Below, one piece after another: positions 11,820 to 63,498 of a DNA stretch of 64,000 bases. Each line of letters starts with the position of its first letter. Positions within the stretch are counted from its first letter, which is position 1. Made by a program: the position numbers and the translations under genes. The notes beneath the pieces were generated by a model. That model was not told the DNA's origin, searched no databases, and saw only the letters and a program-made list of their open reading frames with translations. Source of the DNA: a virus (taxonomy: Duplodnaviria; Caudoviricetes); the IMG/VR virus record IMGVR_UViG_3300045976_000031, positions 413-64,412 of that record. One strand, given 5' to 3'.

Positions 11820-12440
11820 ATGGGAGTGCGGTTAAACTACGCATCGAAAAAGTCGCAGCAGGTGATAAGCCAAATCCTCGCTTATCTTCTCGGTCGACCG
11901 CTCGCTGGCGCAACGCATCAACAGATCGCCTCGATGCTGAAGGCCAGCCACGGAACCGCAAACCGCTTCATTCAGTACCTCGTAGGGATCAACCAGATTC
12001 ACGTTGCACGCAAGGCGAAGGCCACGAATAAGGGTCATCTGCCGGCGATTTACAAGCATGGCCCGCGCATCGAGACTCGGTTCTCGGGGCGCACGACGTA
12101 CCAGGATTTACCACTTAACTTTTTTGGGAGGAAACGCAACATGAGCAATGTCGCACAAGAGCAACCGAAGCAAATCATGACGGACTGGTATGACGGTAGC
12201 GTGTTCGCGCCGGCATACGTCGGCCCGTTCCAATGCACGATCCTCGATAACCGGCCGGCCGAGGAAACGATGCACATGCGCTGGTGGAACGGCGAGCGCT
12301 GGTCCTATCCGCTGCAACCCGAGCACGAGGACGGCAAGGGTGGCTTCTACGCGCCGGCCGACGACTACTACGTGAAGGACAGCGACGACAGGCCGTCGTT
12401 CGCCTGGCGCGGCTTCTGCGAGGACCAGGACGAACTGTAA
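11820..12440 (+). CDS. winged-HTH-like N-terminal part fused in frame to a ~99-aa domain with its own start at 12141; ends QDEL
   Basis: THQQIASMLKASHGTANRFIQYL resembles an HTH; GGGAGG RBS before the ATG at 12141. Confidence 0.6.
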   Translation: MGVRLNYASKKSQQVISQILAYLLGRPLAGATHQQIASMLKASHGTANRFIQYLVGINQIHVARKAKATNKGHLPAIYKHGPRIETRFSGRTTYQDLPLNFFGRKRNMSNVAQEQPKQIMTDWYDGSVFAPAYVGPFQCTILDNRPAEETMHMRWWNGERWSYPLQPEHEDGKGGFYAPADDYYVKDSDDRPSFAWRGFCEDQDEL

Positions 12441-12445
12441 TTCGT

Positions 12446-12474
12446 TTGACAGGGAATTTCCTTGTCACTATACT
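12446..12474 (+). promoter_or_regulatory. sigma70 promoter TTGACA-N17-TATACT containing the 21-bp palindrome
   Basis: TGACAGGG-AATTT-CCTTGTCA at 12447..12467. Confidence 0.85.
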
Positions 12475-12502
12475 TTCAACAAATCACCAACAGGGATTCG
12501 AC

Positions 12503-12982
12503 ATGAACAAAAAGAGCGTGAAGGGACTGGCGAACATCGCACAGCTTCTCAACCAGGGCGGCGTTCTCGCCGCAGCACCGGCACCGAAGCGCGAGCGCCG
12601 CGACACGAACGACATCTTCATGCGCACCCGCGAGAAGGTACAAGCTGCAATCCCGCTCGGCGCGAACCTGGACCCGAAGCATTGGGCGCTGATCGACAAC
12701 TACCTGAAGGCGGGCATGCGCGAAGCCTACAACGTGGGCCACGCCGACGCCCTGGACCAGAACAGCCAGGTCGAGCGCCTGCTGGACAAGCAGTACCAGA
12801 AGCGCACGGAGGTCACGATGCCGGCCGTCGTCGCGGGCGTGATGGAACAACTCGGCCTGTCGTCGATGGTGCTGGACCTGGCGCTCATGGCTACCGTGTT
12901 CGACCGCCACAAGATCACGTACACGCTGTCCGACGAGAACGTGATCGAATACACCATGCGCCCGGTCGGAGACGACGCATGA
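12503..12982 (+). CDS. hypothetical protein
   Basis: MNKKSVKG..., AGGGA RBS after the promoter. Confidence 0.7.
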   Translation: MNKKSVKGLANIAQLLNQGGVLAAAPAPKRERRDTNDIFMRTREKVQAAIPLGANLDPKHWALIDNYLKAGMREAYNVGHADALDQNSQVERLLDKQYQKRTEVTMPAVVAGVMEQLGLSSMVLDLALMATVFDRHKITYTLSDENVIEYTMRPVGDDA

Positions 12983-13101
12983 ATCCCGTCACCTGGTTGC
13001 TGTCCGCCTGCGCGGTCCTCGGCGTGTGCGCGCTGGTGATCCTGCTGGAACGCGGCATCGACGCAATTTTCGACAACGGAGAAATAGATGACATCTACTG
13101 A
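12979..13101 (+). CDS. 40-aa single-TM peptide with acidic tail
   Basis: MNPVTWLLSACAVLGVCALVILLE...EIDDIY. Confidence 0.55.
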   Translation: MNPVTWLLSACAVLGVCALVILLERGIDAIFDNGEIDDIY

Positions 13102-13303
13102 AAAACCGAACGCTGACGAATCCGTCGTGTTCCCGAAGGACCACCTGGGCAACCCGCCTATCGCGTGGATCGTCGAGCCGAAGAAGTCCGGCGCGCCGTA
13201 CCTCACGCTGAAGGCCGACGTGGCGATGAAGCGCTACAAAGCCGGCGACCACGTTGCGCCCTACCACACCCAGCGCGAGATCGAGACGGAGGAAGAACTG
13301 TGA
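13088..13303 (+). CDS. hypothetical protein, ends EEEL
   Basis: 71 aa with GGAG RBS. Confidence 0.65.
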   Translation: MTSTEKPNADESVVFPKDHLGNPPIAWIVEPKKSGAPYLTLKADVAMKRYKAGDHVAPYHTQREIETEEEL

Positions 13304-14292
13304 AAGCCGTGAAGACCATCAAGGCGTTCATCCCGTACGCCATCAACCGCGACTTCGCCGACTGGTGCCGCAAGGCCGTGGCGCGGCCGGCAGCGGCCCG
13401 CAAAGCCGTCGACCTGTTCATCGCGAAGGACCCGGACGACCACGAGTGGAACAGCCTGGGACTGGTCGAGCCGATGGGCGGCGAGGCGCTGGTGCACGAC
13501 CTGGACGGCGCGGCCTTCATGCTCATGTACCAGGTTGCCGAGCGCAAGCTGCCGGCGTCGGTGCGCGACGAAGAGGTGCACAAGCGCTACACCGAACTGT
13601 CGGATCGCGAAGGCCGGCCGCTCAACAAGAAGGAGTTCGCGCAACTGAAGGAGGACGTGGAATCGTCGCTGCTGCCGCAGGCGTTCATCGTGCGCAAGTT
13701 CATCCCGGTCCTCGTGACCGACGACACGCTGCTGGTGTGCACGTCGAGCGCGTCGCAGTGCGAGAAAATCCTGGCGAAGCTGGTCCGCCTGGCCGAAGTG
13801 CGCAAGGTGAAGTTCGAGATCAGCGGCGGCAGCTATGCGATGTCGCCGGGCGCGTTGCTCGGCCAGATCGCGCGAGACGGCCAGGTGCAACTCGACGACG
13901 ATGACGACAACGTGCTGCACGCCGGCACCTCGGCCAAGTTCAAGGGCGAGGACAAGCGGACGATCACGGTGAAGGACCGCGACCTGCATTGCGACGAACT
14001 CGTGAAGATCACGACGGACACGCAGTACGCGGTGACGGAACTGCGGCTGCACTTGGAGATCAACGGCGGCGAAGGTGTAAGCGAATTCACGCTGACCGAC
14101 AAGATGATCTTCAAGGGTTTCAAGCTGACGGACGTGAGCCTGGCCGGCATCAACAACGACACGGACGATCTGCACGCGACGCACTGGCTGCTGGCGAAGG
14201 AAATGCTGCGCGCGCTGGAAGCTGTCGTCTCGGCACTCGGCGAAGGGGATCACGATGTACCGCCTGCCGACGCCGACGACGAAGAACTTTAA
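13300..14292 (+). CDS. rdgC: recombination-associated protein RdgC-like, ends DDEEL
   Basis: ERKLPASV...EGRPLNKKE..QLKEDV...LLPQAF signature; GTG start overlapping the upstream stop. Confidence 0.85.
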   Translation: MKAVKTIKAFIPYAINRDFADWCRKAVARPAAARKAVDLFIAKDPDDHEWNSLGLVEPMGGEALVHDLDGAAFMLMYQVAERKLPASVRDEEVHKRYTELSDREGRPLNKKEFAQLKEDVESSLLPQAFIVRKFIPVLVTDDTLLVCTSSASQCEKILAKLVRLAEVRKVKFEISGGSYAMSPGALLGQIARDGQVQLDDDDDNVLHAGTSAKFKGEDKRTITVKDRDLHCDELVKITTDTQYAVTELRLHLEINGGEGVSEFTLTDKMIFKGFKLTDVSLAGINNDTDDLHATHWLLAKEMLRALEAVVSALGEGDHDVPPADADDEEL

Positions 14293-14314
14293 CAAGTACC
14301 TGGGGAAGAAATTT

Positions 14315-14554
14315 ATGCCGCGAGAAAAAACAGGTCAGGCGCAGGTGAAGGTCCTGGTCGACAGGTTCGTCCGCATGCTGCCCGGCCAGTCCTTCTTCAT
14401 TCCTGACGTGACGCGAATGGACGTGGAATTCTTGCGTCGCCCCATCGTGCGCATCGGGTGCGGCATCAAGATCGTAGAAGTCGAACAGGATGAAATCTAC
14501 ATGTCGCCGGGCGTGCGCATCTGGCGCGAGGAAGGACCGTATGACGAACTCTAA
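14315..14554 (+). CDS. small putative DNA-binding protein, ends YDEL
   Basis: M.PGQSFFIP...GVRIWR motif. Confidence 0.6.
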   Translation: MPREKTGQAQVKVLVDRFVRMLPGQSFFIPDVTRMDVEFLRRPIVRIGCGIKIVEVEQDEIYMSPGVRIWREEGPYDEL

Positions 14555-14831
14555 GACCACCAGCACGGCGGACATTCCGCGCGGATCGCAGCCGGTCCCG
14601 CGTGAAGTCGGCGACGCGTTCCAGAACTTGTGCGAGGTGTGCCGCGCGAACCGTGTGCCGATGGAAGCCGCGATTCGCCACGCGCTCGCCTACAAGAACA
14701 TGTTCCATGACATGCAGGATAATTGGCACGAGGCGCAGGCGGAAATTTGCCGGCGCGGCGACACGATCAAGCGGCAGCGCGAGATCATCGCCAACCTCGA
14801 ACGCCAACTCGGCATCGACGACGAACTGTAA
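14541..14831 (+). CDS. coiled-coil hypothetical protein, ends DDEL
   Basis: AAGGA RBS; start MTNSKTT. Confidence 0.65.
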   Translation: MTNSKTTSTADIPRGSQPVPREVGDAFQNLCEVCRANRVPMEAAIRHALAYKNMFHDMQDNWHEAQAEICRRGDTIKRQREIIANLERQLGIDDEL

Positions 14832-14837
14832 ATCCGA

Positions 14838-14858
14838 CGACACGGCGGCACCGTGTCA
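14838..14858. promoter_or_regulatory. variant of the 21-bp palindrome
   Basis: CGACACGG-CGGCA-CCGTGTCA, intergenic. Confidence 0.65.
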
Positions 14859-14889
14859 CAAACTTTTCATAACGAAGGAAACACTCATC

Positions 14890-15627: not shown

Positions 15628-15990
15628 ATGAGCACTACCAACGAAGTAACCGTCGTCGAGCGCATCACGCGCGGGCAGATGATGGGCGACATCAACCCTG
15701 GCGGCAACGTCGTGCACGCGGCCTGGTTCGTGAAGACCCGCCTGCGCCAGCGCGGCGTGCCGGTGATCGGATCGCTCGGCATCATCGCGACCGAATGGGG
15801 CACGCTGACCATCGAGTTCGAGAAGGGCACGGACCCGGACCTCGGCCAGTACAGCGACGCGTGGGTCTACACCTGGACGGGCAAGCCGGTGCCGGCCGAC
15901 ATCGACCTCGTGCTGTATGCGCGCGAAGGCAAGGCGCTGGTGATGGACGAGCCGCTGGCCGCCCTGCTGACCGTCGACGAAGAACTGTGA
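15628..15990 (+). CDS. hypothetical protein, paralog of 16002..16397, ends DEEL
   Basis: GVPVIG...EWG.LT...YTWTGKPVP. Confidence 0.75.
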   Translation: MSTTNEVTVVERITRGQMMGDINPGGNVVHAAWFVKTRLRQRGVPVIGSLGIIATEWGTLTIEFEKGTDPDLGQYSDAWVYTWTGKPVPADIDLVLYAREGKALVMDEPLAALLTVDEEL

Positions 15991-16001: not shown

Positions 16002-16397
16002 GTGTCAACCAATTTGCAAACCATTACCGCCACCTTCACCCGCGACCAGTTCTCGCGCTTGCCGAAGTCCGAGTTCGCCGGCAACGACACGAAGGCCGGC
16101 GAGATCATCGCGGCTGAACTGAAGCGCAAGGGTGTCCCGATCATCGGCCACATCGGCGTGCTCGCCGTCGAATGGGGCAAGCTGACCGTGGCGCACGAGG
16201 AAGGTCTGGACGGCGACGAATGGACCTACACCTGGACGGGCAAGCCGGTGCCGCCCGAATTCGTCACGAAGATGAACTCGCCGAACGGTGCGCTGGTGCT
16301 GGTCTATCCGCTGACGGCCCGCATCTTCGCTCACGAGAACAACCAGGCGATGATGGTCAAGGCGGCCACGGCCACCGCCGACGACGACGAACTGTAA
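16002..16397 (+). CDS. hypothetical protein, paralog of 15628..15990, ends DDDEL
   Basis: GTG start behind AAGGA; shares the YTWTGKPVP motif. Confidence 0.75.
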   Translation: MSTNLQTITATFTRDQFSRLPKSEFAGNDTKAGEIIAAELKRKGVPIIGHIGVLAVEWGKLTVAHEEGLDGDEWTYTWTGKPVPPEFVTKMNSPNGALVLVYPLTARIFAHENNQAMMVKAATATADDDEL

Positions 16398-17245: not shown

Positions 17246-17246
17246 C

Positions 17247-17540
17247 ATGCACTACCTCGAAAAACCGAAGCTGCGCGAGTGCGAATTGCGGCGCGAGGAA
17301 GTGCTGGAAGCCGAGGCCGGCGCTACCGCGTTTGTCGGCACCGCAATGGCAATGAAGATCGCAGGCGAAGAGGTGATCGTGACCGGCCGCAATATCGCCT
17401 CGCTGCTGATCGTGTTCAATTACGTTGAGGCGAAGCACGCGAAGGGGAACGCGAACGCGATGAAAACCCTGCGCACCGACGCCTGCCCCGAAGTAGCAAT
17501 CATGTCGAAGAACAGCCTGACGTTCGACGACGAACTCTGA
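17247..17540 (+). CDS. hypothetical protein, ends FDDEL
   Basis: 97 aa with GGAG RBS. Confidence 0.65.
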   Translation: MHYLEKPKLRECELRREEVLEAEAGATAFVGTAMAMKIAGEEVIVTGRNIASLLIVFNYVEAKHAKGNANAMKTLRTDACPEVAIMSKNSLTFDDEL

Positions 17541-23983: not shown

Positions 23984-23992
23984 GCTTCCCCC

Positions 23993-25003: not shown

Positions 25004-25015
25004 GAGGGTTTCCTT

Positions 25016-26902: not shown

Positions 26903-26911
26903 GTTTTCCCC

Positions 26912-45165: not shown

Positions 45166-45519
45166 TTACAGTTCTTCGTCCTTACCGTCAGCCTTGGCCT
45201 TCTCGGTCTTCGCTGCGGCTTTGGACTGCACCTTCGCGGCCGGCGCGCCACCATCCGGCGAGGTCGCGGCACCCAGCGGGGCCGGCGTCGAGGCGTTCGG
45301 GTTGGCGTCGGTGTCGCCGAGATTCTGGATGCCGCCCACCGGGCCGTTGTCCAGGTCGGTGATCGACTCGTTGATCGGCTGGCGCAGGGCGTTCTTGTTG
45401 ATGCCCTGGATTTCCTTCATCTCGTCGGCGGTGAAGTTGAACTTGTCCTTCGCCTTGACGACGATGCGCTGGCCGTCGCGGTGCAGGATGATCTTTTGGG
45501 TTGCGATACGAATTGGCAT
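45166..45519 (-). CDS. hypothetical protein after the capsid gene (gpFI position), ends DEEL
   Basis: 117 aa, GGAG RBS, disordered C-terminal half. Confidence 0.7.
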   Translation of the reverse strand: MPIRIATQKIILHRDGQRIVVKAKDKFNFTADEMKEIQGINKNALRQPINESITDLDNGPVGGIQNLGDTDANPNASTPAPLGAATSPDGGAPAAKVQSKAAAKTEKAKADGKDEEL

Positions 45520-50446: not shown

Positions 50447-52510
50447 TCAAGCTAGGGCGTTAGCCATTTCGGCAAAATTGAATCGCGATTTTACCCCACC
50501 GGCGAATGGCTTTTCCTGGTCAGGCGAGCGCACAAAGTCGTTCGTGTCCCATTCGGACGCCCATCGCGGCGGGTTATTCCAGTCGATGCTATCGACCCGG
50601 ATGTACTGCGAGATGCACACGCCGATGCAATAGTAGGACAAGTCCCATGCCTCATTGCGCACGGTCGTATTGTGCTCCCATCCCTTCGGCGTCCGGTTCT
50701 CCGCGCACATCTCGGCGTAGAAGCTGTCTGCCAGCCAGTCCGGCGTGCGATACATGCCCTTGCCCGGCTCGATGCAGTCCAGGCGCGCGTCGAGGTCGTC
50801 CTTCAGCAGATTCGAGTTGAAGAACAGGACCGGGATGTCGCCGCGCGCGCCCGTCTTGCTGTCCTTCCGGTTGCTGTCCGGGTAGTTGACGCGGGTGCGC
50901 GGATTGCCCGGCTTCGGATCACCCTTCACGAGCACGAAACGCTGGTGGCGGTTCAGCTTTACCAGCTTGCGCCAGAACTGGTACGCCATGCCGGTGACGC
51001 CTTCCTGACCGCCCGAGTCGCACGCGGTGATCTTGATCGACATGAGCCGGCCGCTGTCGTCGGCGAGCGGATATTCCTTATCCATGACGTGCTCGATAAG
51101 CTGGTCCCAATCGTCCAGGTACGAGGCCGGCTTGACCCACAGCGGATCGCCTTCATCGTCCACGCGCTTCGACTTGCGCACGTCGAATCGGTCGATCAGC
51201 ACCATGTCGAACGGCGTGCCAGGCATGATGCCGAACACCTGCACGACCCACATGTTTTTCTGCACGTCGACGGTGGCGACCAGGAAGCGCACACCCTCGG
51301 GCACGACGCGCTCGCCCAGCGAATGCTCGGCCCTGGCCTTCAGTGTCTCGGGCAGGCGAATCTCGCTGTGCTTGCGGCTGTAGTACGGCTCGCCCAGGTC
51401 GTTGTTGTAGAACTTCTTCAGGGATTCCTCGGTGCCGGTGCGCTCGAAGTCGTCGCACGCGTCCAGGTACATCACGACCAGCTTCTTCCACGACACGAAC
51501 GCAGCGGCAACGCCGCGCAGCCAGAACGACGCGATCAGCGAGCGGATCGAGCGGCCGAACTTGCGGCCACGGTCGTCGATGGCCTCGCCGTCCTTCAACC
51601 ACATGCCCCAAAGGTTCATCTCGTAGCGGTCATCGGGCACGATGTGGTGCGCGCACTTCGGGCATTCCATATAAACCGTTTCCGCCGCGTCCAGGTTCGA
51701 CATGCCCGGCTTGCGGTCGTACTTCAGCATCTCGAACTTACCCTCGAAGTAGTGATCGCAGCATGGGCACGGCCAGTACCAGCGGCGGCGGTCGCCACGG
51801 TTGTACAGGCCGATGATCCCGTCGCACGGCGGTGCTTCGTGCGGCGTGCGCGCGATCCACTTGATGTCCTTCACCTCGCGCGACGGCGACGATTCGGCCA
51901 CGCACATCGCATTCGAGCCGAAGGTCGTGGTTCGCTTCATCGCCAGGTCGAACGGCTCGCCGTCGCCGTCCACGTCGTCCGGCATACGGTCACGGTCGGT
52001 CAGCACCACGCGGCCGATTGGCTTACCTGCCAGTTCGGTCGGCGTCGGCCAGGACAGCGACAGCATCATGCCGGTGTTGTACAGCTTGTCGAACTTGTTG
52101 TCGTTGTCCGCGCCCGGCGTCAGCATCTTCCCGATCTCGGGTGAGTAGCGGTTCAGGCGGTCGATACGGCGCATGGAGAAGTCGCGGGCCGCCGTGTTCG
52201 TCGGGCACACGATCATCATGTCCATCGGGTCGATCTTGATGGAATAGAGCGTGGTGTTGATGACCAGGGCGTCCGTCTTCGCCGACTGCGCCGGCCCGAC
52301 GAAGATCATGCCGGTGTAGTTCGTCGACGCGAACACGTTCATCGGCTCGACCATGTACGGCGTCGTCGTGTTGAACCAGGGACCCACGTACGCGCCTGGC
52401 GAATTCACGATCCGGTACTTGTGCGCCGCGTCGGCCACGGTGGTGCGCTCGGGCGGGCGCAGCATCTCCGCGCACGACAGCGCGATCTGTTCTACGGAAT
52501 TAAAGTTCAT
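50447..52510 (-). CDS. terminase large subunit (lambda gpA family, cos-type)
   Basis: TPYMVEPM, AQSAKT, GDRRRWY.PCP.C, VDVQ, RNEAWDL; start MNFNSVE. Confidence 0.95.
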   Translation of the reverse strand: MNFNSVEQIALSCAEMLRPPERTTVADAAHKYRIVNSPGAYVGPWFNTTTPYMVEPMNVFASTNYTGMIFVGPAQSAKTDALVINTTLYSIKIDPMDMMIVCPTNTAARDFSMRRIDRLNRYSPEIGKMLTPGADNDNKFDKLYNTGMMLSLSWPTPTELAGKPIGRVVLTDRDRMPDDVDGDGEPFDLAMKRTTTFGSNAMCVAESSPSREVKDIKWIARTPHEAPPCDGIIGLYNRGDRRRWYWPCPCCDHYFEGKFEMLKYDRKPGMSNLDAAETVYMECPKCAHHIVPDDRYEMNLWGMWLKDGEAIDDRGRKFGRSIRSLIASFWLRGVAAAFVSWKKLVVMYLDACDDFERTGTEESLKKFYNNDLGEPYYSRKHSEIRLPETLKARAEHSLGERVVPEGVRFLVATVDVQKNMWVVQVFGIMPGTPFDMVLIDRFDVRKSKRVDDEGDPLWVKPASYLDDWDQLIEHVMDKEYPLADDSGRLMSIKITACDSGGQEGVTGMAYQFWRKLVKLNRHQRFVLVKGDPKPGNPRTRVNYPDSNRKDSKTGARGDIPVLFFNSNLLKDDLDARLDCIEPGKGMYRTPDWLADSFYAEMCAENRTPKGWEHNTTVRNEAWDLSYYCIGVCISQYIRVDSIDWNNPPRWASEWDTNDFVRSPDQEKPFAGGVKSRFNFAEMANALA

Positions 52511-53114
52511 CGTCGTCCTCGTGTTTCGGTGCGCCGCCGCGCGCGGCAAACACTGCATCCTCCGCTTGCTCGATCACCTGCGGATTCGTCGGTGCCTTGC
52601 TGAATTCCTCCTTCACTGCGCGGTACAGTTCTTCCAGCATGCCGTCGCCCAGCGACTTCACCAGGTGGCGTTGCCGGTCGGTGAGTTCGGCCTGGCGGTC
52701 CACCGCGTCGGCCATCAGGCGGATGCTCATCTTCACCATCTTCATCAGGCCGCCGATCACCTCGACCACGCGCGTCGTCGGCCACAGGTTGCCTTCGCGC
52801 TGCTCGTATTCCTGGCGCGAGCGCAGGCCGGCCCAAAACTCTTTCGTCAGGTGCTTCGGCAGATCGTTGTGGTGCATCCGCTTAATGTATTCCTCGATCT
52901 CGTACGCCGGCTTCACGAGATAGGGTGCTACCTCGTGCACCTGGTAGATGTTCACGCCGTTGCGTTCGCCGCTCGGCTTGCATCCGCCCTTTTCCAGCTT
53001 CTCGACCAGGACGCGGTGATCCATGCGAAACAGGTTGCCGAGTTGCGACAGGTTCGCGCCGTCGTACAGGATCGCGCGTGTGGTGTCGTCGGTTGCGTCA
53101 GTTCTTTTTGCCAT
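52500..53114 (-). CDS. terminase small subunit, ends DDDEL
   Basis: directly upstream of and overlapping TerL; N-terminal HTH-like segment; LP..L.KEFW motif. Confidence 0.8.
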   Translation of the reverse strand: MAKRTDATDDTTRAILYDGANLSQLGNLFRMDHRVLVEKLEKGGCKPSGERNGVNIYQVHEVAPYLVKPAYEIEEYIKRMHHNDLPKHLTKEFWAGLRSRQEYEQREGNLWPTTRVVEVIGGLMKMVKMSIRLMADAVDRQAELTDRQRHLVKSLGDGMLEELYRAVKEEFSKAPTNPQVIEQAEDAVFAARGGAPKHEDDDEL

Positions 53115-53388: not shown

Positions 53389-55335
53389 TCAAAGTTCGTC
53401 GTAGCAGTCGGACCCAGGACCGCATGGGCCGCCTGCGTCGCCGCAGTTCGGACAGCACTCGTGCGGCAGCAGGAATTCGTCGGGCACATCCAACTCGTCG
53501 ACTTCGACCAGGTTGCCGGCCTCGCTGCACACCGCCCATTCGCCGAGCGTCATCTGCGCGTAGCTGTCGCTCTCGGGATGGTAGTACCAGCGCTTCACGT
53601 CGTCGACGATCTCGTCTTCCAGCTTCACCTCGTCGCTCATCTTCGTGTCGGCCAGGATTTCGACAACCTGGTCCCAATCCGCGTCTTCTGGCTGCACCTT
53701 CTTCCGACCCTTCAGCAGCTTGCGCAGCTTCGTCCGCATGCGCTTCATGAGGCGGAACAGCATGTCCTGCGCGTCTTCCTTCGCGGTGAGCGCCTGCACC
53801 ACGGCCTCGTCGAGCGTGTCGCGGCACACCAGCAGATAGACCAGCACGCGGTGCTTCTGACCCTGGCGTGCGAGGCGGCCGATGAACTGAAGGTACAGTT
53901 CGAGCGACCAGGGGATGTCGTAGAACACGATGATGTGCCCGCCCTTTTGCAGATTGAGGCCGTGCCCGCCCGACGCCGGGTGCATCGCCAGGATCGGTAT
54001 CTTCCCGGCGTTCCACGGCTTCACGCATTTACCCTCGGCGTCCATGAAGGTGATCTTGGTGCCGAATGCCTTCTTCAGCCGGTCTTTCGATGCGCGGTGG
54101 TGGTAGCCGACCAGGATGTTCCGGCCCTGCGACTCTTCGATGATCTGCTTCAGTTCCTCCAACTTGTGCGTGTGAATCTGGTGAATCTTCTGAATTTTGA
54201 CGTGATCGTCCTCGTCGGTTTCACCGGGTTCCAGCTTCGTCTCGTACAGCACGCCGGACGCCATTTGCAGCAGCTTCGCCGACAGCGCCGCAGCCGTCTC
54301 GGCCTCGATCTCGCTGCCATCGTCGAGCGTGACCACCATGTCGGCTTCCATCTTGCGGTACAGGGCCATCTGCTCGGGCGACATCGTGACGTGGCGCGTG
54401 ACGAACAGCGGCGGCGTGCGCGGCAGGTAGTCCTCTTCCTTCATGACCAGGCAGATGTCGCTGATCTTCGCCAGGATCGCCGGCTCCGCGCCAGGCCGCA
54501 GCTTCCACTTCCGCGTGTAGCGGTTTTCGGTGAAGAACTCTTCGCGGAACCTGGTGATCTCTTTGCCGAAGCGCTTGCCGCCGTCGATCAGGTAAATCTG
54601 CGCGAACAGGTGCAGGTAGCTCTCGGCGGCCGGCGTCGCGGTCAGGATGTGCATGCGCGTGATGAAGCCCGGCTGATCGCGCACGGCCTGCAACGCCTTG
54701 AAGCGGGCCGCGTTGTGATCTTTGAAGCCGCTGGACTCGTCGATGATGACGGTCCTGTACGGCCATTTCAGCTTGCGCACGCGGTAGTAGGCCACGAGCC
54801 ATTCGACCCAATCGCGCGAGATCAGGTGCACGCTCGCCTTGCTCAACGTCGCGGCCTCGCGGATGTCCTCGCGCATCTGCGCCGCAGCGCGCGTGCCGGC
54901 CGCCTGCGCTTCCTTCTCGATCTCCGACTTGAACATGCGCAGGTTGGCGCATTCGGCGCGGCGCGCACGGATCGCGTCGCGGCTGGCGGCCTTCACGCGC
55001 GGATCATCGTCGTCGACGTGGATGATCGAGAGGTTCAGGTGGGCCAGGTGGTTCCACTTCCTGAATTCGTCCGGCCAGGTCTGCGTGGCGACGCGCAGCG
55101 GGCCGATCACGAGCACCGGGTTGTCGTCGACGAACTCGGCCACCAGGTCGGCGATGAGCGTGGCCGTGGTGACGGTTTTGCCGAGGCCCATGTCGATGAA
55201 GAGGCCCGAGAATGGGTTCTCCTTCAGGAACTTCAGGCCGGTGTTCTGGTATCCGTGCATCTGCTCGCGGTACAGTTCCACGTCCGCGAACTTCGCGCGG
55301 ATGCGCCGCAAAAAATGGTCTGCTACTACGCTCAT
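53389..55335 (-). CDS. SNF2-family helicase, ends YDEL
   Basis: DMGLGKT, IIDESS, LTATP, GHGLNLQ, QFIGRLARQGQ. Confidence 0.92.
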   Translation of the reverse strand: MSVVADHFLRRIRAKFADVELYREQMHGYQNTGLKFLKENPFSGLFIDMGLGKTVTTATLIADLVAEFVDDNPVLVIGPLRVATQTWPDEFRKWNHLAHLNLSIIHVDDDDPRVKAASRDAIRARRAECANLRMFKSEIEKEAQAAGTRAAAQMREDIREAATLSKASVHLISRDWVEWLVAYYRVRKLKWPYRTVIIDESSGFKDHNAARFKALQAVRDQPGFITRMHILTATPAAESYLHLFAQIYLIDGGKRFGKEITRFREEFFTENRYTRKWKLRPGAEPAILAKISDICLVMKEEDYLPRTPPLFVTRHVTMSPEQMALYRKMEADMVVTLDDGSEIEAETAAALSAKLLQMASGVLYETKLEPGETDEDDHVKIQKIHQIHTHKLEELKQIIEESQGRNILVGYHHRASKDRLKKAFGTKITFMDAEGKCVKPWNAGKIPILAMHPASGGHGLNLQKGGHIIVFYDIPWSLELYLQFIGRLARQGQKHRVLVYLLVCRDTLDEAVVQALTAKEDAQDMLFRLMKRMRTKLRKLLKGRKKVQPEDADWDQVVEILADTKMSDEVKLEDEIVDDVKRWYYHPESDSYAQMTLGEWAVCSEAGNLVEVDELDVPDEFLLPHECCPNCGDAGGPCGPGSDCYDEL

Positions 55336-55631
55336 TTCATCAACTCCTTAAACTGGTCCAGGTCGTCCAGGACGTGCACTTCCGCGCCGTGCTCGCGCAT
55401 TTCCCTGATCCTGCGGACCTGGATCGCGGACAGGCCGCTCTCGCCGCGACCTGGCCTCTTCCACTCGATCCACACCACCCGGCCGCGCCGGATGTAGCAG
55501 CGATCCGGCAGGCCGTTGAAGGTCGGCGATTCGACCTTGAACGTGAACCAGCCGCGCTTCTCCGCGTACTTGTGAGCCTTGCTGGTGTTATCGCTTTCCA
55601 GCGCCGGCTTCACGTCAAATATCTTCACCAT
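55332..55631 (-). CDS. VRR-NUC nuclease
   Basis: GLPDR...WIEWK.PG...LS..Q; start MVKIFD. Confidence 0.88.
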   Translation of the reverse strand: MVKIFDVKPALESDNTSKAHKYAEKRGWFTFKVESPTFNGLPDRCYIRRGRVVWIEWKRPGRGESGLSAIQVRRIREMREHGAEVHVLDDLDQFKELMK

Positions 55632-57810
55632 CGTCGTCATCCTCTGCATACGGTCGTTCTTCGCGACAGGTCTTGCACATGCGCGTGTCGTGGCCCGCTT
55701 CGTCCAGGGTTTGCCAGTTCTCGCGCACCTTCTTCTCGGCCTTGCCGCACAGTGCCGTGCGTGTCGCCATGTCGACGACGTGCGCGGTCTTCTGGCCCGG
55801 CAGCACCAACGTGCGATAGCCGAAGTTTTCCAGCTTCGGGTTCTTGGTGCGCAGGCCGATGTCGTCCAGGCGCGCGTACGCCTCGCGCACATACCAGTCG
55901 TAGTCGATGTCGTCCGGGAAGGACTCAGGCAGGTTCATGCAGGGCACAGCGCCGGTCGTGCCGGCCACGCGCGCGCCGTTCTGCTTCGCGATGAACCCGC
56001 GTTCGCCTTCGCCGTGATACCAGCGCACCATCTTGCCCAGGTACTCGCCATCCTTCAGGCCGCCTTCCTTCTGCGTGCCGTCCGGCAGCGTGCATTTGCC
56101 CACCTGCTTGACGCCGATGAACTGCGTGAAGTCGCGGCACTTGCGGATCGTCTCTTCGATGTCCGCGCCGGTCAGCAGGTAGTCGACCACGGCCTGCGAA
56201 CAGATGTCGAAGGTCGGGTCGTGCTTCGCTTGCAGGCCGGCCTTCGCGAACAGTCCCTTGCGCTTCACTTCCGGCTGCAACACGCCGGTTTTGTCCGGGA
56301 TCATGAGCACCTGGCCTGGCTCCTTCGGGTCCTCGACGATGGCGAGGTAGCTGTTCACGTCGCGGCTGTACACGCCCAGGTAGCGCACGGCCTCGGTGGT
56401 GAAGCCGGTGTCCATTTCCCAATCCGCGACGATGCACGCGAACATGCCGTAGCGCTCGCGCGGGATCACGGTCACGATGCCGTCCGTGTTGGCCGAGATG
56501 ACGTTGAAGCCGTTCAGGTGCAGTTCCTCGATCAGCATCAGCAGGGACAGTTGCCCGGTCAGCGTGGTCGAGATCAGCAGGCGCGGCGAGTAGACGATGG
56601 AGTACGGCGAGCCGGTCTTGCCGAACGTGCCGTTGTTGACGATCTTGAAGGAGTCCGAGCGCTTCTTGTACTTCATCGACTCGGACGGGTTGGACTTCTT
56701 CAGGCGCGCGGCCTGCTCTTTGTACTGGTCGCGCAGTTCGACGAAGCGCGTGAAGATCGGCACGAACTGCTTGCCCACGGCCTGCGGCACGTATCCGCAA
56801 CCCAGGATCAGGCGCGGGTAATAGGCGCGCACGTCGCGGTCTTCGATGATCGTGTTCTCGTCGGCCACGAAGGACCGGCGCTTCTCTTTCGAGTGCAGGC
56901 CGCCGATGCCGATCTTGTAGTCGGTGCCGCCGATGCGCAGGCGCTCGTTCAGGTCTTTGATGGTCTGCGGCAGCTTCACGACGCCGTACGATTTCTTGTC
57001 GTCCGGGTTCTCGGCCGAGACGAAGAATCTGGTGGCCTCGATCTGCGCCAGCACGTCGCGCAGCAGCGGCGTCTTGAACTTGATGAAGTGCGGCGTCTCG
57101 TACTTGAACGAGAAGGTCTTGACGGTCGGCTTTTCCGGCTTGTAGCCGGTGATCTTCTCGACCTCGCGGCCGATCAGGGTTTCCGCGATCTGCGCGTCGG
57201 ACTTCGAGCGCACGTCGACGCCGTACTCGACGCTGATCTCGTTGCGGATGTCGATTTCTTCGCGCAGGCGCAGGGCCAGTTCGCCGGTCGTGTCCAGGTC
57301 GTTGCCCAGGTACTTGCGCATGAGCGGCCGGCGCGCGGCACCGATCAATTCGGACGGGTCGATGGGGAGTTCCTGCAACCAGGGCATGTTCATTCGCGCG
57401 CCGTACTTCTTCAGCGACAGCTTCACGCCGGGCGCGACTTCCATGAGGTCGATGTGGTCCAGGTAATCGGGAAGCTGGCAGTGGTAGCGGTCCAGGAACT
57501 TCCACAGCGGCAGGCGGTATTTGAAGATCGCGTCGTTCGCTTCCTTCAGCTTCTCGTTGCTCGCGCCGGCCATCGCGAGCGCGATCATCATGAGGTCGTA
57601 GCCGAGGCCGTTGAACGTGTACAGGCGGAAGCCGCGCATGATTTTCGCGATCTTGCGGCGGTCCAGGTCCAGGCCGTCATACTTTTCCAGGATGACCTTT
57701 TTGCCGGTTTCCAGGTTCTTGAATCCGATGCTCCAATAATCGCGGTAGCACTCGGTATCGCACGCGGCCTCGGGCCGTTTGTCGAGGAAGGTTTTGATGG
57801 ATATGGGCAT
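55615..57810 (-). CDS. DNA polymerase, family B-like, with 3'-5' exonuclease domain
   Basis: Exo DTECY / FNG..YD; motif A DVRAYYP, B KIVNNGTFGK, C NTDG; start MPISIK. Confidence 0.88.
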   Translation of the reverse strand: MPISIKTFLDKRPEAACDTECYRDYWSIGFKNLETGKKVILEKYDGLDLDRRKIAKIMRGFRLYTFNGLGYDLMMIALAMAGASNEKLKEANDAIFKYRLPLWKFLDRYHCQLPDYLDHIDLMEVAPGVKLSLKKYGARMNMPWLQELPIDPSELIGAARRPLMRKYLGNDLDTTGELALRLREEIDIRNEISVEYGVDVRSKSDAQIAETLIGREVEKITGYKPEKPTVKTFSFKYETPHFIKFKTPLLRDVLAQIEATRFFVSAENPDDKKSYGVVKLPQTIKDLNERLRIGGTDYKIGIGGLHSKEKRRSFVADENTIIEDRDVRAYYPRLILGCGYVPQAVGKQFVPIFTRFVELRDQYKEQAARLKKSNPSESMKYKKRSDSFKIVNNGTFGKTGSPYSIVYSPRLLISTTLTGQLSLLMLIEELHLNGFNVISANTDGIVTVIPRERYGMFACIVADWEMDTGFTTEAVRYLGVYSRDVNSYLAIVEDPKEPGQVLMIPDKTGVLQPEVKRKGLFAKAGLQAKHDPTFDICSQAVVDYLLTGADIEETIRKCRDFTQFIGVKQVGKCTLPDGTQKEGGLKDGEYLGKMVRWYHGEGERGFIAKQNGARVAGTTGAVPCMNLPESFPDDIDYDWYVREAYARLDDIGLRTKNPKLENFGYRTLVLPGQKTAHVVDMATRTALCGKAEKKVRENWQTLDEAGHDTRMCKTCREERPYAEDDDDGEDI

Positions 57811-57874: not shown

Positions 57875-58498
57875 TTACAGGTCGTCGTCGTCTTCGTCTT
57901 CGGCTTCCTCGACATCCCATGCGCCGGAATCGTCGATGCGGCCCTGGCCGAATGCCTTGTCGTCCTTCACGAACATCGCGCCGACCAGGCCGGCGTTCAG
58001 TCGCTTACCGTGCTCGTTGTTCTGAACCCACGGACGAATCAGCATGTGGCCCCATGCGCCACCGTAGAACATGTCGAGGATTTGTTGCAGGTCCTCGACC
58101 GGATCGAGCTTCACGCCTTTCTTGTCGCGGAGCGTCGGGCGGTTGGTTTCGCGCGCACTGAGGAACCAGTGGCCCGCGTAGGTGTTGTCGACATCGCTGT
58201 CGTCATCATCGTCGCGGTTTGCGTCGCCGTCGCGCAGGAACTTCTTGTCGGCCGGGACGGTGATCTTGGCTTCCGCCAGGATCGCCTTCATGACCTTCGC
58301 GATTGCGGTCTTCGCTTCTTCGTGGGTTTCCTTCGGCATGAGGCCCACCAGGCCGTACTTCGCCACGCCCTTGTCGCTTTCCTTCTTCCACGGCTTGTCG
58401 ACGTGAGGGTAGGAGAAGCGCACGTTGTCCACGCGGATCACGCCTTCGTTGTAGATCACATAGTTCTTGCCGCGCTCTTTGACAGTCAGTTGTGCCAT
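57875..58498 (-). CDS. DUF2815 ssDNA-binding protein (T7 gp2.5-like), ends EDDDDL
   Basis: NVRFSYPH, LRDGD, FYGG, FVKDD.AFG; acidic tail. Confidence 0.88.
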   Translation of the reverse strand: MAQLTVKERGKNYVIYNEGVIRVDNVRFSYPHVDKPWKKESDKGVAKYGLVGLMPKETHEEAKTAIAKVMKAILAEAKITVPADKKFLRDGDANRDDDDDSDVDNTYAGHWFLSARETNRPTLRDKKGVKLDPVEDLQQILDMFYGGAWGHMLIRPWVQNNEHGKRLNAGLVGAMFVKDDKAFGQGRIDDSGAWDVEEAEDEDDDDL

Positions 58499-59839: not shown

Positions 59840-59845
59840 GCCGGA

Positions 59846-60250
59846 TTACAGGCCGTCGTCGTCGCCGTTGTCGTCGTCGCCGGTCGTGGCTTCCAGCTTC
59901 GACTTCGCCAGGGTGAACGCGGTGCCGATCTTGTCGTCCGCGATCTCGGCCATCTTCGCAGCGCCGACCTTCGTGATGATGGCCTTCGCTTCAGCGGCAC
60001 CGAACTTCTCTTTCACTTCGGTCAGGGCGGCGACCATCTCTTCGCGGGACGGGCCGGTCTTCTCGGCGGTCTTGTTGGCTTTGCCCTTGCCGGTGCCGGT
60101 GGTCTTGCCTGCGGCGGTGCCGGTCGTTTCAGCGGCGGTGCCGGTCGATGCGGTCGACACGGAGCCGGCAGCGCCCAGGGCGGCGATCAGCGCTTTGATG
60201 TTGGTGTTCAGTTCGGTCAGTTGTGCGTCGAAAGACATGTAAAACTCCAT
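59846..60250 (-). CDS. hypothetical protein of the replication module, ends DDDGL
   Basis: N-terminal helix, Thr/Gly linker, small helical C-terminal domain; start could be 60238. Confidence 0.75.
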   Translation of the reverse strand: MEFYMSFDAQLTELNTNIKALIAALGAAGSVSTASTGTAAETTGTAAGKTTGTGKGKANKTAEKTGPSREEMVAALTEVKEKFGAAEAKAIITKVGAAKMAEIADDKIGTAFTLAKSKLEATTGDDDNGDDDGL

Positions 60251-60314
60251 TTTGAGAAGAGGCGGTTAAAAAGGGTGCGCCGTCATACCGCCGATCAGAC
60301 AGCGCATTTGCAAA

Positions 60315-60500: not shown

Positions 60501-60551
60501 CGTGTCACCTTGTTGTCGATCAGTGCATGACCAGCATCTTCTCACGCCGAT

Positions 60552-60581
60552 TTGCGACTCGTCAATAGGGTGTGCGATAAT
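60552..60581 (+). promoter_or_regulatory. putative promoter TTGCGA-N18-GATAAT with extended TGn -10; divergent TTGACG on the minus strand at 60560..60565
   Basis: AT-rich divergent intergenic region before the HTH/primase operon. Confidence 0.5.
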
Positions 60582-60619
60582 TTGTTCACTTTTTTGATGT
60601 TTGATAGGAGGTCGACGAG

Positions 60620-60931
60620 ATGATTACCTTTCCGGCGTGGGTCGAAAACCCGCGCGATCCCGAATTGAGCGCCGCCGACATGGACGCGCAACTGGCCCAG
60701 CGCCGATTGCGATACATGGTCGGCCTCGCGGCGCTTCACGCAACACCGAACACCAGCATCGCAGCGCTCGCAGATCATTGCGAGATCGAGCGCGCGCACG
60801 TACACGCGGCCATACGCGAAGGTCGTTTTTCGGCGCAGATCGCGGCGAAGATCGAGCGCGCGTGCGGCCGGCAGACCGTGCGCCGCGAGTGGCTGATCTA
60901 TCCCCTTGAAATTCACGAACTGGCGCATTGA
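60620..60931 (+). CDS. putative HTH (Cro-like) regulator
   Basis: SIAALADHCEIERAHVHAAIREG; AGGAGG RBS; coupled to the primase gene. Confidence 0.65.
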   Translation: MITFPAWVENPRDPELSAADMDAQLAQRRLRYMVGLAALHATPNTSIAALADHCEIERAHVHAAIREGRFSAQIAAKIERACGRQTVRREWLIYPLEIHELAH

Positions 60932-63498
60932 TGAACGACGAATACACACCGAAGAACAGCGGCCCACTCGCTTATCTCGGTGCCCGGCTGATCGACAACG
61001 GGTACAGCATCATTCCCATCGCGGTCGGCAAAAAAGCACCAGGATTCGACAATTGGAGTAGCGCGCGGTCGACCAAGGCGCAGCTTCAAGAGTGGATCGA
61101 GTCAGGACATCGCCATTCCGGCGTCGGCATCCTGACGAAACGGAATCCGACCGTCGACATCGACGTTCGGAACGAAGAAATCGCGCTCGAAGCGGAGGCA
61201 AAAGCGCGCGAGATTTTCGGTGATGGGCCAGTTCGCATCGGCATGCCGCCGAAGCGGTTGATGCTGTTCCGCACCGACACGCCATTCCGCAAAATGCGGT
61301 CGGCCAAGTACCAGGATGAATGGGGCGATCTGCACCAGATTGAAATCCTGTGCGACGGCCAGCAGTTCGTGGCGTACCACACCCACCCGGACACCGGAAA
61401 ACCGTACACCTGGCCGGCCGAAAAGCTGGATAAGGACGGATCGACCATCGCCGAGGGTGGGCCGCTGACAATTCCGCAGAACGACCTGATCGACATCACC
61501 GTCGAACAGTGCCAGGCGTTCATCGACTGGTTCGAGAAGCGCGCCGCGCAGGAATCCGATTGGAAGATCGTGAAGAAGCGCCGCGATCCGGGCACGTCGG
61601 AGGTCGACCTGGACAACCCGTTCATGGAAGACACCAACGCGGTCGACATCACCGAGGAAGAACTGCGCGGCCGGCTCATGATGGTGCCGAACCCGGACGA
61701 TTACGACACATGGGTCCAGGTCGGCATGGCGCTGCACCATCAATTCGACGGTGCCGACGAAGGCATGGACCTCTGGAACGAGTGGTCCGAGACTGCCGAC
61801 AACTACGACCGCGATGCGCTCGAACGTCGGTGGAAGGACTTCGCCATCGACGGGAAAAAACGTGCACCGATCACCGCGCGATACATCCTGCGGCTGTCGA
61901 AAGAAGCGGCGGCCGAGACTTCCGCAGCGCTGACGATGAAGCTGCGCGATGGATTCGCGAACGCGAAGGACGTGGCCGACTGGAACAAGGCCCGCGACGC
62001 AGCGCGCGAAGCGGAGATCGACGGCCTGGCGCGCGCGGCGCTGGCATCGCTCGCGAAGGATCGCCTCGACGTAATCACCGCCAGCAAAACGCCGCTGTCC
62101 GAGGTGAAGAAAGCCATCGCCTACCAGCCGGCGAAAGGTGAGAAGACGCCAGGGTGGGCCGAGACGTGGGTGTACGACACGAGCGACGACCGTTTCTTCG
62201 ACACGAAGCGGAAAATCTCGACCACGCAGCAGGGTTTCAACGCGATGTACGACCGGAAGGCGCTGACGAAAAAGGACGTGCTCGATGGACGCAGTTCGCC
62301 GACCAACACCGCATCGGCGCTCGCGCTGAACCAGTTCAAGATCACGGTCGTGAACGGTCGCCGATATGAGCCTGGCGCGGACCCGATCTTCCATCGCGCG
62401 GACGGCGTGTTCGCCAACACCTACCCCGAGCACGAGATTCCCGATCTGCCGGATGAACTGCTGCCGCGTGACAAAAAGGCGATCCGCCGCGTGAAGGATC
62501 ACGTTCGTCACCTGCTGGCGAAGCCGGAAGAACGCCGCATCCTGGTCGACTGGTTGTCGTGGGTGGTCCAGAATCCGGGCAAGCATGTGAATTGGGCGAT
62601 CCTGTTGCAAGGCGTCGAAGGTGACGGCAAGTCGTTCTTCGGATTCCTCATGCGCGCGGTGATGGGTGTGTCGAACGTCCAGATGCTCAATGCGCACATC
62701 CTGGAATCGCCGTTCACCGATTGGGTCGTCGGCCAGTGCCTCACCTGCATCGAAGAAGTGCGCCTCATCAAAGCGACCAACAAGTTTGAGTTGCTGAACC
62801 GGATCAAGCCGTTCATCACGAACCGGATCATCGAAGTGCACCCGAAGGGCAAGCCGACGTACGACGCGATGAACACCACGAGCTACCTGTTGTTCTCGAA
62901 CTACCGCGATGCGCTGCCGCTGGACGACGACGGCCGGCGATACTGCGTGCTGTTCTCGCAGTGGCAGCGGAAGGACAAGCTGGATGCGTTCAAGCGCGAT
63001 AACCCGGACTACTACGAGAAGTTGTACGCGACCATCGAAGAGTGCGCGCCGGCCCTGCGGAAGTGGTTGCTGGAACACGAGCAAGCCGAGGACTTCAAGC
63101 CGATGGGCGATGCCCCGGACACCGACGCGAAGAAGTACATGATCCGCCAGGCGCAGCCCGAGTTCATCCAGAACCTCTTCGACATCATCGCGGAAGGCGA
63201 CGAACCGCTGATCTCGTACGACCTGATCGACGGGAACCGCCTGTCCGAAGTGCTCATGGATCGCGGATTCGACGTTCCGGGCAACAAGGCGGTCGGCGCG
63301 ATGCTGGCGCGCTACCGCTTCGAGTGCCTGGGTCGTGTCAAAGTCGGCAGCGATTCGCACACCTACTACACCCGCGAGACTGAGAAATGGCAGTACCGGA
63401 CGACCGAAGGCGAGGTCCACGTCGACACCGACGCTGTGCGGACTTTCGTGAAAGCGGCGAAGGCGAAGATGGCGAAGGACGACGACGATGAACTCTGA
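60931..63498 (+). CDS. primase-helicase (prim-pol + PriCT-2 + P-loop helicase domain), ends DDDDEL
   Basis: DID, QQFVAY..HP, DYDTW..VGMAL...W.EWS, Walker A GVEGDGKS; TGATG coupling. Confidence 0.9.
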   Translation: MNDEYTPKNSGPLAYLGARLIDNGYSIIPIAVGKKAPGFDNWSSARSTKAQLQEWIESGHRHSGVGILTKRNPTVDIDVRNEEIALEAEAKAREIFGDGPVRIGMPPKRLMLFRTDTPFRKMRSAKYQDEWGDLHQIEILCDGQQFVAYHTHPDTGKPYTWPAEKLDKDGSTIAEGGPLTIPQNDLIDITVEQCQAFIDWFEKRAAQESDWKIVKKRRDPGTSEVDLDNPFMEDTNAVDITEEELRGRLMMVPNPDDYDTWVQVGMALHHQFDGADEGMDLWNEWSETADNYDRDALERRWKDFAIDGKKRAPITARYILRLSKEAAAETSAALTMKLRDGFANAKDVADWNKARDAAREAEIDGLARAALASLAKDRLDVITASKTPLSEVKKAIAYQPAKGEKTPGWAETWVYDTSDDRFFDTKRKISTTQQGFNAMYDRKALTKKDVLDGRSSPTNTASALALNQFKITVVNGRRYEPGADPIFHRADGVFANTYPEHEIPDLPDELLPRDKKAIRRVKDHVRHLLAKPEERRILVDWLSWVVQNPGKHVNWAILLQGVEGDGKSFFGFLMRAVMGVSNVQMLNAHILESPFTDWVVGQCLTCIEEVRLIKATNKFELLNRIKPFITNRIIEVHPKGKPTYDAMNTTSYLLFSNYRDALPLDDDGRRYCVLFSQWQRKDKLDAFKRDNPDYYEKLYATIEECAPALRKWLLEHEQAEDFKPMGDAPDTDAKKYMIRQAQPEFIQNLFDIIAEGDEPLISYDLIDGNRLSEVLMDRGFDVPGNKAVGAMLARYRFECLGRVKVGSDSHTYYTRETEKWQYRTTEGEVHVDTDAVRTFVKAAKAKMAKDDDDEL

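Follow-up and report, generated by a model that had tools for sequence, protein, structure and literature searches.

Background

Acidic tails of the kind seen at the C-terminus of proteins that bind single-stranded DNA (SSBs) are an established docking device. The tip DDDIPF of the Escherichia coli SSB is a docking motif, and in bacteriophage T7 the terminal phenylalanine of such tails is essential and the tails of gp2.5 (the SSB) and gp4 (the primase-helicase) are interchangeable. Reports on T7 describe binding of the gp4 tails to basic patches of gp5, the polymerase (PMC12593628), and contacts of the gp2.5 tail with other replication proteins (PMC10359462, PMC5686142). In the crystal of the SSB of Enterobacter phage Enc34 (ORF6), the C-termini sit in a groove of neighbouring molecules (PMC5686142, accessible part). 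The known precedents involve either one tail and many receptors, as in the bacterial SSB, or two tails and one receptor, as in T7. Here we analyze a stretch of 64,000 nucleotides from a virus of the class Caudoviricetes (IMG/VR record IMGVR_UViG_3300045976_000031, positions 413 to 64,412; hereafter the window), in which 12 of 79 called genes, mostly unrelated to each other, end in the tripeptide [DE]EL, and in which the SSB and a few further proteins end in close variants of it. What is new in this system is the spread of an SSB-type tail to 12–18 proteins, packaging factors included, the specificity of its last residue to each phage lineage, and its independence from the type of DNA polymerase. 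We consider it probable, at roughly 0.6, that the tail has been copied from the phage's own SSB and is read by one phage-encoded partner, as an expansion of docking in the style of T7. The full texts searched, to which subscription journals mostly do not belong, do not describe a tail that the proteins of these phages have in common.

The resemblance to T7 lies in the SSB, which belongs to the same structural family, and in the fact that SSB and primase end alike in an acidic run and a hydrophobic residue, phenylalanine on both proteins in T7 and leucine on both in the window. The tails of the window and its relatives differ from those of T7 in that their last residue is aliphatic and dependent on lineage. 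An earlier note on this DNA, made from the sequence alone, had cited both T7 gp2.5 and the E. coli SSB as parallels; the first is apt, given a gp2.5-type SSB, and the second is looser. With the E. coli tail, a docking motif of DNA metabolism, the window tails share an acidic run, a terminal hydrophobic residue and a free C-terminus. However, the tip sequence and the fold type of the SSB are different, and one tail addresses many receptors there, whereas many proteins bear one tail here. None of the window proteins ends in IPF, and DDDIPF was found in the relatives L076 and L100 only.

A common acidic ending on mostly unrelated proteins

The window covers 64,000 of the 64,412 bases of its record, which is judged 99% complete, and has a G+C content of about 63%. 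DNA and protein searches identify it as a Casjensviridae-like siphophage. The nearest isolate by primase identity is Pseudomonas phage vB_Pae-SS2019XI (51%; hereafter SS2019XI), followed by Burkholderia phage AH2 (41%), Xylella and Stenotrophomonas phages (32–33%) and the Chi-like phages (about 29%). The 79 genes were called with a self-training codon-usage caller that includes a start-site score, and all gene counts rest on this caller; the called starts are possibly off, but the stops, and hence the C-termini, are independent of the choice of start.

The 12 genes ending in [DE]EL have their stops at 12440, 13303, 14292, 14554, 14831, 15990, 16397, 17540 and 63498 on the plus strand and at 45166, 52500 and 53389 on the minus strand. 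Within proteins, about 19,700 positions contain 20 copies of [DE]EL, a rate at which 0.08 terminal occurrences would be expected (binomial P 5.7e-23), so that the over-representation relative to internal tripeptides for which the earlier note had proposed a test was borne out. A looser rule, which asks for a terminal L, V, I, F, M, W or Y and for D or E at two or more of the four positions before it, recovers 18 of the 79 genes, about a fifth, where internal windows lead one to expect 1.94 (P 7e-13). The six genes added by this rule are those of the SSB, the polymerase and the protein at 59846–60238, along with three weaker cases. In T7 the same rule recovers only two of 56 annotated coding sequences, gp2.5 (DEDGDF) and gp4 (SNDTDF), in contrast to the 12–18 of 79 in the window, which include TerS, RdgC, a head-module protein and several small proteins.

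All 12 endings that the earlier note had listed, as well as the variants it had reported on the SSB (EDDDDL), on its neighbour at 59846 (GDDDGL) and on the polymerase (DDGEDI), are present in the sequence. Its description of the carriers as mostly unrelated also holds, the single paralogous pair among the 12 being 15628–15990 and 16002–16397, with 37% identity. The portal, capsid, tail and lysis genes of the window are tag-free, as the note had stated, and the same is true of TerL. Short tails are common among the carriers and often extend just four to six residues beyond the apparent folded domain.

Conservation of the ending as a peptide

The DNA pattern GANGAACTNTRA is found in 12 copies in the window, all of which are the 12 gene ends, against 0.05 expected from shuffles. 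This count, which by itself cannot separate a peptide from a DNA reading, could also point to a signal at the nucleotide level, either an element of ribosome binding or translational coupling that serves the gene behind it, or a linker for recombination at the ends of genes. The position of the neighbouring genes lends this alternative some support: the next start lies between -11 and +2 bases from the stop in three of the 12 tagged genes, and one example is TerL, whose ATG lies within GAT GAA, the Asp-Glu codons of the TerS tail at 52500–52510 (minus strand), with GAGGA five bases upstream. The TerS-TerL overlap is 11 bases in the window, and an 11-base overlap is seen in Salmonella phage iEPS5 as well. 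However, in six of the 12 the next start on the same strand is 11–66 bases downstream, and the four short gaps that were inspected carry a purine-rich site of their own; in two of the 12 the next gene begins 14–38 bases upstream of the stop, and in the remaining one no downstream gene is called. An explanation through ribosome-binding sites therefore fits three of the 12 at most.

The codons are more decisive. Among the 12 endings, leucine is encoded by CTG (6), CTC (3) and CTT (3), the stop is TAA (7) or TGA (5), and the penultimate glutamate is GAA throughout. The latter feature, which the earlier note had singled out, is true of the 12 but extends beyond the tag: at internal Glu-Leu pairs across the window genes the count is 82 for GAA and 7 for GAG. 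The bias appears to be specific to Glu-Leu, since GAA makes up only 59% over all codons that start with C, and the overall usage in the window genes is 586 GAA versus 520 GAG; in effect the codon pair GAG-CTN is strongly avoided genome-wide. Avoidance of a restriction site as the source of this preference was considered and rejected, given that AGCT occurs 131 times versus 151 +/- 12 in shuffles, with 98 of 100 shuffles having at least 131, and shows no clear depletion. In orthologous tails, counted over 38 distinct sequences from four carrier families, the last codon is CTG (14), CTC (8), CTT (5), CTA (5), TTA (1), TTG (1), GTG (2), GTT (1) or ATC (1), the penultimate codon is GAA (24), GAG (8), GAC (4) or GAT (2), and the stop is TGA (20), TAA (17) or TAG (1). 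The use of six leucine codons, both glutamate codons and all three stops largely refutes a nucleotide-level signal, and across lineages it is the amino acid that varies (L, V, I, M), with the acidic run preserved. Judged from these codon patterns, selection is on the peptide and not on the nucleotides, as the earlier note had argued from the codon variety within the window, and we regard a DNA-level signal as an extremely improbable account of the endings.

Protein families that carry the tail

The 2,809 called proteins from all sources were clustered into families, and the tagged members were counted among the distinct sequences of each. The stable carriers are RdgC, with all 28 members of its family tagged, the phrog_7721-like small proteins (33 of 35), and the TerS (37/44), SSB (63/76) and primase (48/68) sequences. 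Intermediate to low carriage is seen in the DUF2800 exonuclease (43/77), the phrog_1252 polymerase (11/30) and the SNF2 helicase (18/75). At the other end stand the VRR-NUC proteins (4/70), the portal (1/38), TerL (0/53), the family-A polymerase (0/49), adaptor W (0/43) and the virion families (0). In families specific to the clade of the window every member is tagged (9/9, 12/12 and 9/9). Tagging of the helicase, exonuclease and polymerase varies among lineages. The earlier note had allowed that orthologues might gain and lose the tail at random, which would have spoken against a functional tag; the stable family-wise carriage seen in these counts instead indicates that the tail is a lasting property of certain proteins, without random gain and loss.

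In relatives, further nucleic-acid-binding carriers are encountered, namely the exonuclease, ParB-like and RusA-like proteins. The earlier note had proposed that the tag marks proteins of DNA transactions. This is accurate for every carrier of known function; about eight carriers are small proteins without an assigned function, and one carrier is encoded in the head module.

The range of carriers also bears on the idea that the tail is a stability signal, either a degron or a protection from C-terminal proteolysis, instead of a docking element. C-terminal residues govern proteolysis by ClpXP and Tsp, and the ssrA-type, ClpXP and Tsp tags are short, with a hydrophobic end and non-polar residues such as LAA. 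The window tails resemble them as short signals at the extreme C-terminus with a hydrophobic last residue, and many of the tagged early and middle proteins without an assigned function look short-lived. The difference is that the window tails are acidic up to the last residue and that their main carrier is an abundant SSB, needed in bulk and the most consistent carrier. Furthermore, late packaging proteins such as TerS and the DUF7443 protein are tagged too, a protective acidic end needs no particular last residue that switches with lineage, and the T7 SSB tail has a docking role documented in the T7 reports cited above. A role in stability is on these grounds highly unlikely.

Variation of the last residue with lineage and with the SSB

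The tail is a family-wide feature with a lineage-specific end. In the relative L002, whose RdgC is 83% identical to that of the window, all eight orthologues of the block keep the tail, with swaps that stay within the pattern. In SS2019XI 9 of 76 genes have xDL ends, and AH2 has DDL, DEL and GL. The Chivirus iEPS5 has [DE][DE]V ends on 9 of 69 called genes, its carriers being RdgC, TerS, SSB, the exonuclease, the primase, a DUF7443-like protein, a helix-turn-helix protein and two others. In the 34-kb stretch of Aeromonas phage vB_C4 that was examined, 10 of 45 genes are tagged, nine of them with a terminal I. In an Erwinia phage TerS, helicase, SSB and primase end in an acidic run plus x-L, and Proteus phage Saba has DDEL and DDDL ends. 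Only the SSB is tailed in Xylella phage Bacata and Stenotrophomonas phage Suzuki, and in the Sano/Salvo-like phages the tail is almost absent. The same pattern emerges from 26 IMG/VR loci that surround RdgC and 80 that surround the SSB, the latter located with an alignment of four SSB sequences that replaced a first set of eight, which was too diverse; these loci add lineages ending in M and, in a phage of 32% G+C, in an aromatic residue. The lineage codes can be summarized as DEL or DDL in high-GC lineages, DEV in the Chi-like phages, DEI in the Aeromonas phage, and M or an aromatic residue elsewhere. Tabulation across Chi/Nazgul-like genomes, which the earlier note had thought might reveal a separate tag for each lineage, did so, the tags switching on all carriers together.

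The SSB of the window (57875..58498, minus strand) ends in EDDDDL and offers a prototype of the tail. It matches phrog_112 (E 9e-39), PF10991 (E 3e-22, above the cut-off) and PDB 5ODJ (E 2e-38), and by these matches is a T7 gp2.5-type (DUF2815) protein predicted to bind single-stranded DNA. The structure 5ODJ is that of Enc34 ORF6, the closest solved relative, which comes from a related phage and likewise has an acidic tail. In the accessible part of the Enc34 report the tail is discussed for the SSB alone, and other tailed phage proteins go unmentioned (PMC5686142). A DUF2815-associated RNA is mentioned in the accessible part of bioRxiv 10.64898/2026.10.21.760695; an Rfam scan of the window at the gathering thresholds gave no matches, and this RNA was undetected at that threshold. 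The AlphaFold2 model of the full SSB has a predicted local distance difference test score (pLDDT) of 87, which falls from 67 to 48 over the tail ...DVEEAEDEDDDDL (residues 181–207). In this model the tail is not docked on the core in cis and merely has low confidence, and the SSB tail, together with the corresponding end of the polymerase (residues 719–731), is predicted to be a disordered, flexible end.

At 70% identity the SSBs fall into 38 lineages, of which 27 combine a tagged SSB with one or more further tagged proteins. In these 27 lineages, 92 of 123 other tails share the last residue of the SSB of their own genome. Shuffling the SSB ends in 100,000 runs gave a mean of 48.7 (standard deviation 9.9) and a largest value of 86, corresponding to P<=1e-5 in a test that leaves shared descent in, beyond the 70% clustering. 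The match is not confined to leucine: with an SSB ending in I the other tails end in I in 19 of 27 cases, with V in V in 9 of 11, with M in M in two of four, and with Y in an aromatic residue in four of five. A tree of the SSB core calls for at least nine changes of the end residue, but is poorly resolved, 7 of its 35 inner branches being starred. As a pattern the co-variation is strong, and the number of independent events behind it is uncertain. That an SSB-like tail has been generalized to other proteins, as the earlier note had put it, agrees well with the matching ends on so many unrelated carriers.

Columns of the SSB core were also compared with the tail class (L versus I/V) by mutual information, and this approach was discarded, as the top columns merely split off the Chi clade and are confounded by descent. 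Co-folding of the SSB core (residues 1–188, with a 62-row alignment) with the last 40 residues of RdgC returned no call on contact (score 0.01), in a run made without controls.

These observations are relevant to the proposal that the tails act in cis, each as an autoinhibitory mimic of DNA that folds onto the nucleic-acid-binding surface of its own protein and tunes its specificity, with no shared receptor. In T7 gp2.5 the tail and single-stranded DNA reportedly compete for one surface. Moreover, the carriers of known function are all nucleic-acid binders, including the SSB, primase, helicase, RdgC, TerS and polymerase, and in relatives the exonuclease and the ParB-like and RusA-like proteins, and the Enc34 SSB lacking its 21 C-terminal residues is described in the accessible part of the report as binding double-stranded DNA (PMC5686142). 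However, unrelated folds acting each on itself would need no common last residue; against this, the ends of 92 of 123 tails agree with the SSB, and the residue differs by lineage. Several tails, such as SLTFDDEL and EEGPYDEL, reach only 4–6 residues past the apparent domain, which is short for reaching back, and about eight small carriers are without a recognisable DNA-binding domain. We accordingly hold a purely cis-acting tail to be unlikely.

The polymerase slot and candidates for the receptor

The DNA polymerase of the window (55615..57810, minus strand; phrog_1252), which ends in DDGEDI, had no matches in a phmmer search against PDB sequences and only a sub-threshold match to Pfam PolB. 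Its AlphaFold2 model (pLDDT 87, with residues 719–731 below 50) retrieved family-B polymerases at E 1e-15 with Foldseek, and on the strength of this model it is a family-B polymerase with a disordered acidic tail. The polymerase slot is occupied by a family-B enzyme (phrog_1252) in the window and AH2, and by a family-A enzyme (phrog_17, PF00476) in the Chi-like phages and SS2019XI. The exchange is best seen in the pair L061 and L062, which are nearly identical in the primase (99.9%), exonuclease (99.3%), SSB (98.3%) and helicase (98.9%) and differ solely in the polymerase cassette: L061 has an untagged family-A polymerase (L061:10712-12760) and L062 a phrog_1252 polymerase (L062:10675-12702) ending in IEGEDL, which fits the local code. 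The remaining tags are unchanged between the two. Among 21 tag-rich lineages, 14 have a family-A polymerase and six another type.

This sets the window apart from T7, where the receptor is a family-A polymerase: here the polymerase, family B by its model, is itself tailed and can be swapped without a change in the tags. Because the network survives the exchange of family A and family B, and because the family-B enzyme itself carries the tail, the polymerase is unlikely to serve as the universal hub. In a comparison in which many loci are partial, no gene family near the SSB distinguishes the 21 tag-rich lineages from 9 that are tag-poor; the lowest P, 0.07, belongs to a family that is itself a carrier. 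No tag-reader domain of the PDZ type, or of the TPR clamp type that reads EEVD, was found among 26 of the 79 window proteins against Pfam and 40 of the 79 against PHROGs. The most plausible hubs would be, in this order, the OB-fold groove of the SSB, the primase, and another conserved untagged protein.

Such results leave some room for a reader provided by the host, in the form of a replisome component, chaperone or protease adaptor in place of a phage protein. No phage receptor was found in the scans described above, no gene family near the SSB splits the tag-rich from the tag-poor lineages, and the end partly follows the host, with V in phages of Salmonella, Escherichia and Klebsiella, I in the Aeromonas phage, and L in phages of Pseudomonas and Burkholderia. 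Nevertheless, phages of related Enterobacterales differ from each other (V in Chivirus, L in the Erwinia and Proteus phages), which is unexpected for a conserved host pocket, and the tail tracks the phage's own SSB. Also at odds with a host reader are two small replication-module proteins of relatives, L076:4533-4907 (124 residues) and L100:8916-9182 (88 residues), which end in DDDIPF and thus use the tip of the bacterial SSB tail beside the phage tag; they may tap the host partners of SSB. A host reader is in our estimate quite unlikely, and this explanation and that of a stability signal gain no support, being disfavoured by inference only.

A proposed docking function for the tail

Under the docking reading that we favour, the [DE]EL ends would have been copied from the tip of the tail of the phage's SSB and placed on the primase, TerS, RdgC, the conserved small protein and several small early or middle proteins, and, according to lineage, on the helicase, exonuclease and family-B polymerase. 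The terminal hydrophobic residue with its free carboxylate, along with the acidic run, would plug into a basic, hydrophobic pocket on a phage-encoded hub, and the carriers would be recruited to, and compete for, one site joining replication, recombination and packaging. If the pocket is encoded by the phage, tail and pocket would drift together. The ends in L, V, I, M or an aromatic residue in different lineages, and their uniformity in each genome, would thereby be accounted for. That the tails bind a partner, that this partner is a single receptor, and which protein it would be, are points that we infer from the distribution and co-variation of the tails.

Several observations weigh against this reading. 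Of the 123 tails, 31 mismatch the SSB of their genome, the shuffle test retains shared descent, and an independent-pairs test on the SSB-core tree had one usable pair on supported branches and six on all branches, too few for significance. Single genomes can be mixed: in the sister genomes L045 and L049-L051 the phrog_7721-like protein ends in I and the rest in L, L105 and L056 have mixed terminal residues, and the window itself is not uniform, its polymerase ending in I and a 40-residue protein in Y. In three of the 12 cases the tail codons fall where the following gene has its ribosome-binding site or start codon, the nucleic-acid binding of all known-function carriers leaves room for a role in cis, and a receptor was not found among the phage proteins by gene-family profile or domain scans.

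A more specific and tentative form of the docking reading, which we think possible but doubtful, is that of a private address code. The SSB tip would then be a transferable tag that wires a dozen or more unrelated proteins, including a swapped-in family-B polymerase, to one co-evolving phage hub and insulates them from the host SSB network, from co-infecting relatives and perhaps from defences that sense SSB. If one receptor does read the tag, the tag would be a handle for locating the organising hub of the phage DNA factory, and about eight proteins of the window without an assigned function, and many more in the Chi-like phages, would be assigned to that factory; it would also furnish a compact, transferable label with which proteins could be recruited in infected cells. 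The family further offers a natural system for studying the co-evolution of a motif and its pocket, and how a replaced enzyme, here a family-B in place of a family-A polymerase, is plugged into an existing network.

Carriers encoded in the window

The small carriers without an assigned function are mostly found in a block on the plus strand between 12.1 and 17.5 kb. The first of these, a protein of 99 residues ending in EDQDEL (12141..12440), has only weak family matches, and its orthologue in L002 ends in QDEL. A 71-residue protein without an assigned function, ending in ETEEEL (13088..13303), belongs to a family with 9/9 distinct members tagged, and its stop overlaps the start of the next gene (gap -4). 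The latter encodes the RdgC-like recombination-associated protein ending in ADDEEL (13300..14292; PF04381, E 3.7e-27; phrog_724), in whose family the ends are L in 13, V in 14 and I in one of the distinct members. It is followed by a 99-residue phrog_7200 protein ending in GPYDEL (14255..14554; 10/18 distinct family members tagged) and a 96-residue protein of no assigned function ending in GIDDEL (14541..14831; 3/3 tagged). The paralogous pair consists of a 120-residue protein ending in TVDEEL (15628..15990), with 12/12 distinct family members tagged, and a 131-residue protein ending in ADDDEL (16002..16397). The block closes with a 97-residue protein of no assigned function that ends in TFDDEL (17247..17540; 9/9 tagged).

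The carriers on the minus strand include the 117-residue DUF7443 protein ending in GKDEEL (45166..45519; PF24227, E 8e-18), encoded in the head module just downstream of the major capsid gene; its orthologues end in GDEDL (SS2019XI), AEDEV (iEPS5), ADDEL (Saba) and EEGDL (the Erwinia phage). The small terminase subunit TerS ends in EDDDEL (52500..53114; phrog_141, E 1e-41), and the SNF2-family helicase, a lineage-variable carrier, in DCYDEL (53389..55335; PF00176, phrog_62). On the plus strand the Prim-Pol/PriCT-2/DUF5906 primase (60931..63498) ends in DDDDEL.

The 130-residue conserved small protein (59846..60238, minus strand; phrog_7721), which lies beside the exonuclease and ends in GDDDGL, belongs to the widely tagged family noted above. 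It consists of an N-terminal helix, a linker of variable length rich in Ala, Gly, Thr and Lys, a helical domain of about 55 residues, and the tail. The neighbouring DUF2800 exonuclease (58541–59653, minus strand) ends in FNEFSE and is untagged, and its orthologues in SS2019XI, AH2, iEPS5 and vB_C4 are tagged; by this comparison the window exonuclease looks like a lineage-specific loss in an often-tagged protein. The three weaker cases recovered by the looser rule are all on the plus strand, namely a 71-residue protein ending in YHEADL (7311..7526), with no relatives in the loci examined, a 183-residue protein ending in TEGENL (7755..8306), with three of six distinct family members tagged, and a 40-residue hydrophobic protein ending in EIDDIY (12979..13101), which is included by the tail rule.

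Three tagged genes have short inverted repeats behind their stops, at 12441–12470, at 14832–14861 and just downstream of the stop at 53389 (minus strand). The repeat after 12440 is TGACAGGGAA/TTCCTTGTCA, overlapping TTGACA, and that after 14831 is GACACGG...CCGTGTC; these elements could be terminators or operator sites. A different C-terminal motif is shared by four consecutive tail-fibre-like paralogues (21842–27877, minus strand), which carry FGIIAR, FGIAVRP, FGFNVTAP and FGMRVTS, and this FG motif is kept in the Chi-like phage iEPS5 as FGIITR and FGVIVRP.

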